Shown: positions 6,200-59,235 of the stretch, piece by piece
How positions within the stretch are numbered: the stretch's first letter is position 1
Layout: the number at the start of each line of letters is the position of its first letter
Translations under genes and position numbers: made by a program
Notes under the pieces: model-generated
The model's input: only the letters and a program-made list of their open reading frames with translations
The model's database searches: none
What the model was told of the DNA's origin: nothing
NCBI GenBank assembly: GCA_950096895.1
Contig: CATNBF010000001.1
Location: forward strand, 20,853 to 84,852
Source of the DNA: an uncultured bacterium
GTDB taxonomy: Bacteria > Pseudomonadota > Alphaproteobacteria > Rs-D84
Reading direction: 5' to 3'
Length of the DNA stretch: 64,000 nucleotides

Positions 6200-6220
6200 T
6201 TCTTGTTGTGAGAGTTGATA

Positions 6221-6246
6221 AAATCCCGCCCAAATGGGCGGTTTTG
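6221..6246 (+). terminator. intrinsic terminator
   Basis: aaaatcccgccc-aaat-gggcggtttt directly after the stop at 6199. Confidence 0.65.
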
Positions 6247-6577
6247 TCTATCTTGGTCCTGCGCACGGCAGGGTACTTGTACAGCGCGAACATCGCTTTG
6301 CTCGTTCTTGTCAACGGCGTAATCGAACCAATTGTCTCTCATCTCATCGCCCAACACCCAATAATTAAACCCGCCAATGGCGGGTTGAATTCTTGGTTGG
6401 GGCAGCTGGATTCCCTTGGCACTAATGTGCCTGTGGGGAAACCGTGACGACTCGACCGCACTTCGTTTGTCTCGTCTACTTGTTTTCGAACCATGTTGGT
6501 TCTCATCTCATCGCCCAACACCCAATAATTAAACCCGCCATTGGCGGGTTGAATTCTTGGTTGGGGCAGCTGGATTC
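6247..6577 (-). repeat. tRNA-Gln-linked tandem element (two units, 164-bp period)
   Basis: The tRNA 3' end tggttggggcagctggattc at 6558-6577 recurs at 6394-6413. Each copy is followed, in tRNA orientation, by a terminator hairpin and a conserved module. Confidence 0.8.
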
Positions 6578-6631
6578 GAACCAACACTGACGGAGTCAGA
6601 GTCCGGCGTTCTACCATTAAACTATGCCCCA
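6558..6631 (-). tRNA. tRNA-Gln (anticodon CTG)
   Basis: Manual fold of tggggca-ta-gttt-aatggta-gaac-g-ccgga-CTCTGAC-tccgt-cagt-gttgg-ttcgaat-ccagc-tgcccca-a-cca. CCA is encoded. There is one C/U mismatch at the top of the anticodon stem. Confidence 0.85.
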
Positions 6632-39421: not shown

Positions 39422-39479
39422 TATTATCATAAATTGCAGATTGATTTCTGAATAAAATCAGTTATAATAGCGTCTGCAT

Positions 39480-39556
39480 GCACCCGTGGCTTAACTGGAT
39501 AGAGCATCGCCCTCCGAAGGCGGGGATTGCGCGTTCGAATCGCGCCGGGTGCACCA
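39480..39556 (+). tRNA. tRNA-Arg (anticodon CCG)
   Basis: Manual fold of gcacccg-tg-gctt-aactggata-gagc-a-tcgcc-CTCCGAA-ggcgg-ggatt-gcgcg-ttcgaat-cgcgc-cgggtgc-a-cca. TATAAT box at 39463. Confidence 0.9.
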
Positions 39557-39955
39557 AAATTCAAACCGACCATCGCGTCGGTTTTAATTTTGCACGGGCA
39601 TCCCGCGATTTGAACGCGCCGCGGTCGACTATGAGTCGGCAAGACAAACGTAGTGCAGTCGCGCCGTCACGAATGCCCCGACGGCACACGTGTGCCCAGG
39701 GAATCGCGCCGGGTGCACCAAAATTCAAACCGACCATCGCGTCGGTTTTAATTTTGCACGGGCATCCCGCGATTTGAACGCGCCGCGTTCGACTATGAGT
39801 CGGCAAGACAAACGTAGTGCAGTCGCGCCGTCACGAATGCCCCGACGGCACACGTGTGCCCAGGGAATCCGCCGGGTGCACCAAAATTCAAACCGACCAT
39901 CGCGTCGGTTTTAATTTTGCACGGGCATTCCGCGATTTGAACGCGCCGCGGTCGA
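39537..39955 (+). repeat. tRNA-Arg-linked tandem element, 2.55 copies of a 164-bp unit
   Basis: Unit starts at 39537, 39701 and 39865. Each begins with the tRNA 3' end gaatcgcgccgggtgcacca (the third copy has a 1-nt deletion), followed by a terminator hairpin and a GC-rich module. Confidence 0.9.
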
Positions 39956-40255
39956 TAATTGGTTTTGCCACCAATAAAACATCGGCGGGCACCGGGGCGG
40001 CCATTACAAATGCTATATCACCCATTATGCCCCCCGCAAAAAAACAGATAGCAATATGATCAAAGGCCCGATATCAACCAAAATAATAAAAAAAAAGCGT
40101 ATAGGGACTAGCAAAAAATTTGGTTGTATCAAATAAATTTTTCTATCATTAATGGAATTTTTACCTAATAAAAACAGTTGAATTATGATAAGAATACAAT
40201 CATAATTAGGCTAAGACATTAGGAATATTACCCTAATTAACGATTGGAGAAAAAT

Positions 40256-40522
40256 ATGACACATACAGCGATATGGGCGGCCATTGATGCCTTGGCCGAC
40301 AAGAACAACATGACGACATCACGTCTGGCACAGATTAGTGGGATGGATGTCACATCGTTTAACCCCAGCAAGCGTTTTACACGCGGGGGCAAGCCGCGCT
40401 GGCCATCGATTGGCAGTCTCCTTAAAATCCTGGCGGCAACGGGAACCACATTGGCAGAATTTGTTGAAATGATCCCAGAAACGACCGACATGGAGCATAC
40501 CACCGCCCCAAAGGCGGAATAA
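40256..40522 (+). CDS. small XRE/Cro-like helix-turn-helix regulator
   Basis: ..MTTSRLAQISGMDVTSFN.. HTH. GGAGA SD 5 nt upstream of the ATG. There is a 7-bp inverted repeat aattagg/cctaatt in its promoter region. Confidence 0.55.
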   Translation: MTHTAIWAAIDALADKNNMTTSRLAQISGMDVTSFNPSKRFTRGGKPRWPSIGSLLKILAATGTTLAEFVEMIPETTDMEHTTAPKAE

Positions 40523-57521: not shown

Positions 57522-57597
57522 GGGGTTGTAGCTCAGTTGGTAGAGCACTTGCATGGCATGCAAGGGGTCGTCGGTTCGAGTCCGATCAGCTCCACCA
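57522..57597 (+). tRNA. tRNA-Ala (anticodon GGC)
   Basis: ggggttg-ta-gctc-agttggta-gagc-a-cttgc-ATGGCAT-gcaag-gggtc-gtcgg-ttcgagt-ccgat-cagctcc-a-cca. The G3:U70 identity pair is present. Confidence 0.9.
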
Positions 57598-57898: not shown

Positions 57899-58570
57899 CT
57901 ACTTTACCTTGGCCAGGCGGGCATTCTGGACACAGGCATACCATCTATCATCTCTGACTGTATCAATGTGTATGTCCATTAATTTTCCCAATGTGCGCCC
58001 ATGCGCCCAGCATGATACCAAGATGCGTACAGCCCAAAAGAAAGAATTATTGGACATCGTGCCTGTATCTGCCGCGTCACTGGTTCGATCAATTAGTTTC
58101 TTGGTTAATTTCTTGCCTGCTTTCATTTCTATTTGCATTAATTTTGCCCATTGTTCCGCATAACGAATGGTCATCGCACTATACATATCAGAATCATTCT
58201 GTTTTTTATACGCCGCATAGAAATACGGATATGTAACCTTAAATTCTTCATGCGCAATGGTGTCCAAAAAGATTTTAACCCGATGCTGCTCTTTCAAATC
58301 GCGCAATTTGTCACGCATTTGATTTTTTCTTGCGACGTCAGAATTCTGGTACAAATAACATTCATAATCATACTTTCTGTGATAATTATTAAGAATTTCT
58401 GATACACTCATGCCTGGGGTTACATTGATCAAAATATCATTAAATTGAAATTTGACCAGGCGATTTTCTTTGCACGCCTGACCCAGTGCCTGCTTGGCCC
58501 ACGTCTCAATATCCGTTCCAAGAAAATCACAGCTTGACATAAGGCGCGGCTTGTAATTAAATTTTTTCAT
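57899..58570 (-). CDS. hypothetical protein in a visibly AT-rich segment between tRNA-Ala and tRNA-His
   Basis: 223-aa ORF with no motif I recognise. It is followed by its own terminator (aaaaaccggccataatgccggttttt, 57855-57879). Confidence 0.45.
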   Translation of the reverse strand: MKKFNYKPRLMSSCDFLGTDIETWAKQALGQACKENRLVKFQFNDILINVTPGMSVSEILNNYHRKYDYECYLYQNSDVARKNQMRDKLRDLKEQHRVKIFLDTIAHEEFKVTYPYFYAAYKKQNDSDMYSAMTIRYAEQWAKLMQIEMKAGKKLTKKLIDRTSDAADTGTMSNNSFFWAVRILVSCWAHGRTLGKLMDIHIDTVRDDRWYACVQNARLAKVK

Positions 58571-58737: not shown

Positions 58738-58815
58738 GGCGGGCGTAGCTCAGTTGGTTAGAGCACCGGTTTGTGGTACCGGTTGTCGCCGGTTCGAATC
58801 CGGTCGCCCGCCCCA
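58738..58815 (+). tRNA. tRNA-His (anticodon GTG, encoded G-1)
   Basis: g-gcgggcg-ta-gctc-agttggtta-gagc-a-ccggt-TTGTGGT-accgg-ttgtc-gccgg-ttcgaat-ccggt-cgcccgc-c-cca. Confidence 0.9.
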
Positions 58816-59235
58816 TTAAAATTAAAAGCCCGCCTTGTGCGGGGTTTTTATTTTAATTCTGGACGGTGTCGGATGAGAACCGACCGGTTCGACAACGTAG
58901 TTATCGAGAACAAGCCCCTGCGCCGTTCGAGATATACGCAGTGGAAAGGGACCCGCCGCATACGCGGTGGGAATTACAATCCGGTCGCCCGTCCCATAAT
59001 AAAAGACGCCGTATGGCGTGTTTTTTTATGGGATTGCGGCACCGTGAAGAGAACCGGCCGGTTCGACTACGAGTAAGCGAGACAAGCATCGCGCAGTCGA
59101 GTGCTAACGAGTGGTGCGCGCGCAACGCAGCGCGAACAATACGAAGATATCATGCAATGCATGATATCGAAGGTACCCGGTCGCGACAGCTCATAATAAA
59201 AGACGCCGTATGGCGTGTTTTTTTTATGGGATTGC
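58796..59235 (+). repeat. tRNA-His-linked tandem element (two diverged units)
   Basis: The tRNA 3' end aatccggtcgcccgcccca recurs at 58978-58996 with one mismatch and in degenerate form at about 59174-59193. Modules lie at 58861-58977 and 59037-59172. The terminator taataaaagacgccgtatggcgtgttttttt is duplicated. Confidence 0.8.

Follow-up and report, generated by a model that had tools for sequence, protein, structure and literature searches.

Few oddities of bacterial genomes were sequenced as early as the RtT repeats, and the repeat behind the E. coli tRNA-Tyr genes was reportedly described by Egan and Landy in 1978 and by Rossi et al. in 1981. Here, we have analyzed 64,000 nucleotides of DNA from an uncultured alphaproteobacterium of the Rs-D84 lineage (contig CATNBF010000001.1, positions 20,853 to 84,852; the whole of this stretch is called the window), in which a tRNA-Arg gene is followed by a tandem array of 164-bp units that repeat the tRNA's own 3' end. 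Each unit is probably an RtT-type tRNA-trailer RNA module, a divergent alpha-type variant of the known family.

In E. coli K-12, the tandem unit behind tyrT/tyrV is 178 bp long and present in 3.1 copies, each of which closes with AATCCTTCCCCCACCACCA, the final 19 nt of tRNA-Tyr. Each of these Tyr units scores 133-137 bits with the RtT model of Rfam (RF00391), a family that Rfam classes as cis-regulatory. The annotated gene for the small RNA (sRNA), rttR, starts 8 nt 3' of tyrV and ends at the CCA of the first repeat, and an RtT sRNA is also annotated in E. coli behind tRNA-Lys, ending in the tRNA-Lys 3' end. PMC3318445, PMC4986893 and PMC2965389 credit the description of rtT RNA to Bosl and Kersten 1991, who, as cited in PMC3318445, reported that it accumulates in E. 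coli as a discrete RNA. Members of the family are expressed in Actinobacillus, by Northern blot and RNA-Seq (PMC4986893), so that release of a discrete RNA from the tRNA operon transcript is on record for both E. coli and Actinobacillus, and covariation support and a tandem G-A motif have been published for RtT (PMC7657543). The only reported effect is that overexpression alters the response to amino-acid starvation in E. coli (PMC4986893, PMC7542023), and strains of Erwinia pyrifoliae differ in the presence of RtT (PMC7542023).

A first, sequence-only reading of the window held that no element with such an architecture had been described. That statement was wrong, because the E. coli tyrT/tyrV units end in the tRNA-Tyr 3' end and are annotated as rttR. 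One of its two explanations, a family of small RNAs ending in a tRNA 3'-end mimic plus terminator, was essentially right and matches the E. coli homologue; the other, an integrative element, is weighed below.

Units behind tRNA-Arg, tRNA-Gln and tRNA-His

Tandem Repeats Finder reports 39537-39955 as a tandem array with a period of 164, 2.6 copies, 98% matches and 0 indels counted, in agreement with the repeat first noticed in the letters. The unit also has the four-part layout that had been proposed for it, namely the tRNA 3' end, AAATTCAA with a terminator-like hairpin, a GC-rich module, and a terminal palindrome that forms a GGCACAC/GTGTGCC hairpin. The last 20 nt of the tRNA had been placed at 39537, 39701 and 39865. 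The exact 20-mer, GAATCGCGCCGGGTGCACCA, is present at the first two positions only, and the third copy reads GAATC-CGCCGGGTGCACCA, with a 1-nt deletion that removes one G. A 19-mer of the tRNA-Arg end gave 0 matches in 100/100 shuffles of the window. Unit 3 stops at 39955, exactly 3' of GGTCGA, and no remainder of it, whether further core or another copy of the tRNA-Arg end, was found within the 64-kb window. The sole promoter-like site in the tRNA orientation at the Arg locus lies at 39441-39468, and no promoters were found inside the units in the tRNA direction at the Arg, Gln or His loci. Every unit carries the tRNA's trailer and terminator hairpin.

Related modules had also been recognized behind tRNA-Gln and tRNA-His, and both were recovered (Table 1). 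Modules therefore stand behind three of the four tRNAs of the window, and tRNA-Ala (57522-57597) is without one. The claim that these modules end in the 3' end of their own tRNA is true of the proximal units (20/20 in Gln unit 1, 18/19 in His unit 1) and fails for the distal ones, which are decayed at both loci. In Gln unit 2, the tRNA end has shrunk to ACCA and is followed by a terminator (6226-6241). The two Gln units have a 77-nt block in common with 1 mismatch and diverge abruptly at GAUGAGA, the junction of the segments called a and b below. His unit 1 ends in AATCCGGTCGCCCGTCCCA (58978-58996), and its part in common with tRNA-His begins AAT, not GAAT. His unit 2 combines a long terminal hairpin (59146-59168) with a strongly diverged tRNA-like end, CCCGGTCGCGACAGCTCA (59177-59194), and is flanked by a 42-nt near-identical repeat made up of the terminator and ATGGGATTGC.

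The window resembles E. coli tyrT/tyrV in several respects. In both, a tRNA is followed by about three tandem units (178 bp in E. coli, 164 bp at the Arg locus), the units close with the last 19-20 nt of the tRNA including CCA, a 5' arm pairs with that end, and the motif order GGAUGAGAA..GGUUCGA..CGAGA is common to both. They differ in the 3' half of the core and in their Rfam result, as the E. coli units score 133-137 bits with the RtT model and the window gives no score. The E. coli units also have no intrinsic terminator, and one of them carries the small tpr open reading frame (ORF), whereas each window unit has a terminator and the 1-2-nt indels in the aligned core speak against a common reading frame.

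Table 1. The tRNA genes with modules, the tRNA-Arg promoter and the repeat units of the window (R1, covariance model of alpha-type units, described in the next section)
Feature	Position	Strand	Parts or evidence	R1 (bits)
tRNA-Gln(CTG)	6558-6631	-	ARAGORN and Rfam	
Gln unit 1	6394-6557	-	terminator hairpin 6532-6550, module, exact 20-nt tRNA-Gln end 6394-6413	144
Gln unit 2, diverged	6206-6393	-	trailer, terminator (6368-6386) and 5' arm as in unit 1; core different	20
Promoter of tRNA-Arg, sigma-70-like, TTGATT-16-TATAAT	39441-39468	+	sole promoter-like site of the locus in tRNA orientation	
tRNA-Arg(CCG)	39480-39556	+	ARAGORN and Rfam; its final 20 nt (39537-39556) supply copy 1 of the repeated 3' end	
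Arg unit 1	39557-39720	+	trailer and terminator hairpin 39563-39584; module and tRNA-end copy 39588-39720 (copy 39701-39720)	138
Arg unit 2	39721-39883	+	terminator hairpin 39727-39748; module and tRNA-end copy 39752-39883 (copy 39865-39883, 1-nt deletion)	135
Arg unit 3, truncated	39884-39955	+	terminator hairpin 39890-39911, then 5' arm and first hairpin only	27
tRNA-His(GTG)	58739-58815	+	ARAGORN and Rfam	
His unit 1	58816-58996	+	terminator hairpin 58829-58843, module, tRNA-His end copy 58978-58996	26
His unit 2	58997-59216	+	terminator 59006-59019; module 59027-59156; tRNA-like end 59177-59194; terminator 59203-59216	49

Short-read contigs of the same species (metagenome-assembled genome (MAG) GCA_949032065.1, with an identical L9) break inside the Arg array. 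In a contig from another sample (L112, ERZ781214), compared with 39588-39883 of the window, the first module (GGTCGA variant) directly precedes the deleted form of the tRNA end that the window has after unit 2; either this array is shorter by one unit, or the short-read assembly may be a chimera. For annotation, such repeats interrupt short-read assemblies at tRNA loci, and they can also be confused with integration scars.

Relatives of the units in other genomes

The search pattern GAACCN{3,6}GGTTCGAN{8,16}CGAGACAA, derived from the Gln and His units of the window only, matched 85 loci in the genome collection. At 40 or more of the 85, the match lies 37-100 nt 3' of a tRNA gene (Lys, Ser, Pro or Gln), and there a copy of the 15-nt end of that same tRNA (0-2 mismatches) stands after the match, mostly 33-54 nt 3' of it. 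The duplicated segment had correctly been called tRNA-specific, and these at least 40 further loci extend the rule to the family as a whole. The tRNA-linked matches come from Enterobacterales, Gilliamella, Oceanospirillales, Aeromonadaceae, two alphaproteobacterial MAG lineages (L031/L038 and L041) and Saccharibacteria (L024, L056, L064). Serratia and Amphritea are among the genera with RtT arrays. When 18 tRNA-linked loci were scanned with Rfam, all 12 gammaproteobacterial ones among them reached the RtT threshold there (46-94 bits, with a gathering threshold of 45 bits for RF00391), and the alphaproteobacterial and Saccharibacteria copies among the scanned loci stayed below it. The gammaproteobacterial RF00391 members, which were thus found by a motif derived from the window, resemble the window units in their position, in a 3' end copied from the tRNA directly upstream, in being often tandem and in often having a terminator before them.

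Two further enterobacterial cases involve tRNA-Lys. A scan of viral contigs with blocks from the window, in which one match (L008) was inspected and the other 14 were scanned for tRNAs only, returned in L008 an enterobacterial tRNA-Lys RtT array, with the tRNA-Lys end followed by three 153-bp units of 76-79 bits each as RF00391. The tRNA genes of the E. coli lysT operon (L016) have short RtT-like pieces (about 100 nt) between them, in which the GAACC/GGUUC hairpin is absent but 5' arm, distal core and tRNA-Lys end are all retained.

Four alpha-type units (window Arg 1, window Gln 1, L031 and L041) served to build a covariance model, R1. The sequence-only reading had suggested a search of this kind; run on the window and selected loci, R1 recovered all window copies (Table 1) and gave no credible match elsewhere in the 64 kb, where no module was found away from tRNA genes. 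R1 also cross-matches units validated by Rfam, with 26.9 bits (E 5e-6) for L039 and further matches in L073, L045 and L059, as well as the Saccharibacteria locus L064. Compared with the Rfam consensus GGAUGAGAAC..GGUUCGA..AG.GAGA.AA.CG.., the core has a common 5' half, which retrieves validated RtT units, and a different 3' half. The gamma type of core reads GAGCGAAG..CGAGACAAC, a hairpin and CCCGAAGGG, and the alpha type reads AGUAG.CGAGACAAAC..GUCGAG.CGUCACG..CCCC, a hairpin and AGGGAAU; cross-detection between the two types is weak (13-27 bits). Judged by these comparisons, the window units are best described as a divergent alpha-type branch of RtT that has the 5' half and the architecture in common with the family and a 3' half of the core of its own.

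The Saccharibacteria (TM7) loci L024, L056 and L064 have RtT-like units, partly tandem, behind tRNA-Ser(GGA) and ending in its 3' end (R1 21 bits). One of them, L056, scores 29.9 bits with RF00391, below the threshold. The RtT-like family thus seems to extend to the candidate phyla radiation. It is now found in uncultured gut Alphaproteobacteria and in Saccharibacteria, beyond the reach of the current Rfam model, and the wider family offers more diverse sequences for work on structure and function.

Among alphaproteobacterial relatives, L031 and L038 lie on one MAG contig (CARVLU010000001.1) and have identical modules and identical tRNA 3' halves behind tRNA-Ser GGA and CGA; L038 also holds a second, unrelated-looking insert between two tRNA-end copies. 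A metagenome scan with an alpha-type pattern returned one real match (L110, same species as L038) and 7 chance matches, and RF00391 did not match the alpha units of L110 and L112. The orthologous loci of relatives, located through homologues of the window's L9 and FabZ (the best ones carry the names of Alphaproteobacteria MAG proteins), have no tRNA at those positions. Those of the 85 pattern matches away from tRNAs that were inspected, about 12 Rhizobiaceae loci included, were rejected as family members, being unrelated or chance matches. In the Rhizobiaceae loci L020, L023, L032, L033, L042, L051, L067, L078 and L088, a conserved 5' region has repeated GAACCG..CGGTTC palindromes just 5' of an ATG, a chance match to the motif that is unrelated to tRNAs.

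Unit structure and the T-loop junction

Comparison of each unit with its own tRNA resolves it into four tRNA-related segments around a core. Segment a is the reverse complement of the acceptor and T-stem 3' strands; segment b, GAUGAGAACC, is nearly the reverse complement of the T-stem 5' strand and T loop; segment c consists of the T-stem 5' strand and UUCGA; and segment d, 3' of the core, consists of (G)AAU, the T-stem 3' strand, the acceptor 3' strand and CCA. With the core taken away, what is left of the unit is the 3' third of the tRNA as an inverted repeat. Pairing of a with d forms a closing helix, pairing of b with c forms a hairpin (GAUGAGAACC-loop-GGUUCGA), and the core adds two or three further hairpins. 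The a:d duplex has a mean energy of -16.2 kcal/mol in cognate combinations, compared with -10.7 in non-cognate ones. Minimum-energy folds of alphaproteobacterial, gammaproteobacterial and Saccharibacteria units all have this same closing helix around several hairpins, and RNAalifold agrees. Modeled in this way, the closing helix would imitate the stacked acceptor and T stems of the neighboring tRNA and would end in NCCA. In the His unit, a G pairs with C73, as in a tRNA-His minihelix.

Compensatory changes, suggested in the sequence-only reading as a check on the stems, were found. With 21 units aligned to R1, 90.9% of cells were paired, compared with 70% in shuffles and 26-51% with slid partners, and double-sided changes occurred in 16 of 23 pairs (3/3 modeled pairs in helix 1), figures that are biased toward the structure since the alignment was fitted to the model.

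The junction between units had been placed at a fixed position in the T loop, starting at GAAT. It is indeed constant in the T loop, with the exception that the common part at the His locus starts at AAT. Some tRNA-targeting integrases cross over in the T loop, and the sequence-only reading accordingly considered a non-autonomous mini element carrying a tRNA 3' end, which would integrate site-specifically in the T loop, accrete in tandem and displace older copies outward. Such an element would fit the intact proximal and decayed distal tRNA ends at the Gln and His loci, the 54% identity of the His unit 1 and 2 cores, which are not a recent duplication, the independence of core similarity from tRNA type and genome, and the precise end of Arg unit 3 at the TCGA junction, beside an AT-rich stretch and an HTH gene. 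In spite of these points we regard it as very improbable. No integrase was found by Pfam among ten flanking ORFs at the three loci (L9 side, HTH_26, PBP1, AP endonuclease-like, metallo-beta-lactamase, Tad4-like, FabZ, LpxD, GNAT and RRF), although one could act in trans, and a search for an island around these loci was also negative. The called genes of a few related loci, which themselves have no tRNA or module, were inspected and likewise included no integrase. The repeated block does not stop at the tRNA but takes in trailer, terminator and 5' arm; it measures 77 nt (1 mismatch) at the Gln locus and extends 42 nt past the tRNA-like end at the His locus. The sequence 5' of the junction is unlike the T-stem 5' strand, which a core-type site would resemble, and an att site needs neither a 5' arm complementary to the tRNA end nor hairpins with compensatory changes. 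In E. coli, moreover, the homologue is a processed RNA whose place on the chromosome is conserved. The T-loop junction coincides with the inner end of the conserved closing helix, and this, rather than a crossover site, probably explains why it is constant.

The attL/attR repeats of tRNA-targeting integrative elements and of their derivatives without an integrase (CIMEs) are like the window unit in having a tRNA 3' end duplicated 3' of an intact tRNA, a T-loop junction and possible tandem accretion. They differ from the window unit, which is only 164 bp long, has no integrase nearby, has a repeat that runs past the tRNA, and contains a conserved structured RNA in place of cargo or binding sites of the arm type.

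Proposed expression and amplification, and neighboring features

If the units are RtT-type modules, transcription would begin at the tRNA promoter and reach them by reading through the terminator. By analogy with E. coli, as the annotation there implies, tRNA maturation enzymes would then cut out the unit and trim its 3' end at the tRNA-like NCCA helix. A comparable case is 3'ETS-leuZ of E. coli, an sRNA cut from a tRNA precursor that is a short single-copy trailer. It is likewise a stable RNA from the transcribed spacer of a tRNA operon, freed by tRNA maturation enzymes (for the window, such release is a proposal), and differs in having no tRNA-end copy, tandem repetition or tRNA-like closing helix. 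The number of units would change through unequal homologous recombination between direct repeats of 60-77 bp (tRNA end, trailer and terminator). Such recombination would explain the near-identity of the Arg units, and the 77-nt block at the Gln locus and the 42-nt repeat at the His locus are consistent with recombination between diverged copies.

Several points weigh against this account. Even when E values up to 10 were allowed (Arg and His loci), RF00391 did not match the copies of the window, and at the gathering threshold Rfam returns only the four tRNAs of the window and no RtT; R1 in turn fails to reach the E. coli units, and the 3' half of the core is not that of RtT. Because Rfam misses the window and R1 misses E. 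coli, homology rests on the common 5' half, the architecture and the intermediate sequences. Part of the shared motif is T-arm-like and could have arisen by convergence. A good intrinsic terminator is predicted before every module, so transcription into the modules may be weak, and the fitted alignment behind the pair counts belongs here as well. Unequal recombination does not account for the initial gain of arms that match a new tRNA, and it leaves unexplained the similarity of cores across tRNA types, which is 81% for Arg vs Ser and 84% for Gln vs Ser, compared with 73% for Arg vs Gln in the same genome.

The terminators also bear on a different explanation, in which the module is a cis-acting spacer with no role in trans: read-through RNA would gain a second tRNA-like 3' end and terminator, and the released piece would be a by-product. 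The cis-regulatory class that Rfam gives to RtT, the repetition of the tRNA's own trailer and terminator in every unit and the lack of a promoter in the modules all speak for it. A fail-safe terminator, however, has no need of a 110-nt core that is conserved from Alphaproteobacteria to Saccharibacteria with compensatory changes. There is also no obvious benefit from tandem amplification, and E. coli has a discrete rtT RNA (Bosl and Kersten 1991, as reported in PMC3318445). We consider this explanation unlikely.

The spread of cores among tRNA types could instead be that of a selfish repeat, a neutral or parasitic module that moves between tRNA loci by gene conversion via T-loop sequences that are almost universal, GGTTCGA on its left and GAATCC on its right, and that persists as harmless behind a terminator. 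GGTTCGA and GAATCC delimit the block that goes with core lineage and not with tRNA type, identical modules stand behind two tRNA-Ser genes of one genome (L031, L038), modules follow three of the four tRNAs in the window, and RtT presence varies among Erwinia pyrifoliae strains (PMC7542023). Homologies of 6-7 nt are nevertheless short for homologous recombination, the retention of structure with compensatory changes points to selection on the RNA, and arms re-matched to each tRNA are not the outcome of simple core conversion. A selfish repeat is accordingly a distinctly doubtful explanation.

None of the spacer, selfish-repeat and integrative-element explanations accounts for the matching of the arms to a new tRNA. 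The unit resembles an inverted duplication of the tRNA 3' third, a reverse complement followed by a direct copy, in which the core sits in the T loop of the direct copy, and core lineages appear to have switched tRNA partners. A bolder proposal, to which we give little credence, is that RtT-like modules are a widespread class (Alphaproteobacteria, Gammaproteobacteria and Saccharibacteria) templated on tRNA genes, with dedicated re-tailoring to each new tRNA. If this were true, some copying mechanism would exist, for example snap-back synthesis, template switching or a T-loop recombinase, and through it they would be mobile modules of a new type, specific to tRNA operons. The assignment to RtT sharpens the question to how one conserved core acquires arms matched to whichever tRNA precedes it.

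Other identities for the unit were tried and rejected. The combination GAUGAGAACC..GGUUCGAAA is like a hammerhead ribozyme core (CUGAUGA and GAAA around stem II) in the Gln copy only, the Arg units have GAUUUGAAC, and there was no Rfam hammerhead match at E up to 10; nor did Rfam match any other ribozyme at E up to 10 (Arg and His loci). No opposite-strand tRNA pseudogene was found in the Arg unit by ARAGORN or Rfam. A TnpB/IscB guide RNA (scaffold and 20-nt guide) or IS200/IS605 derivative, which the layout of a scaffold with a specific end had suggested, was set aside, as no such nuclease or transposase was found by Pfam in the ten flanking ORFs and, with regard to a guide RNA, the tRNA-specific end pairs with the unit's own 5' arm.

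Antisense promoter-like sites lie opposite the Gln module (6500-6529, + strand, TTCTCA-18-AATAAT) and the His module (58879-58850, - strand, TTCTCA-18-TAAAAT). They arise from the reverse complement of the GAGAACC motif, and none of this kind is present in the Arg units. Transcription from these sites would run toward the tRNA.

The Arg array is followed by an AT-rich stretch (39956-40240), an HTH_26 ORF (40244-40519) and a 339-aa ORF (region to 41640), the last of which had no match in Pfam and PHROG searches. Between tRNA-Ala and tRNA-His, a 222-aa ORF on the - strand (57899-58567) matches Pfam PF25186 (Tad4, a Thoeris inhibitor; 48 bits) and phrog_9822, and this region could be a small island of phage origin that lies between the two tRNA genes.

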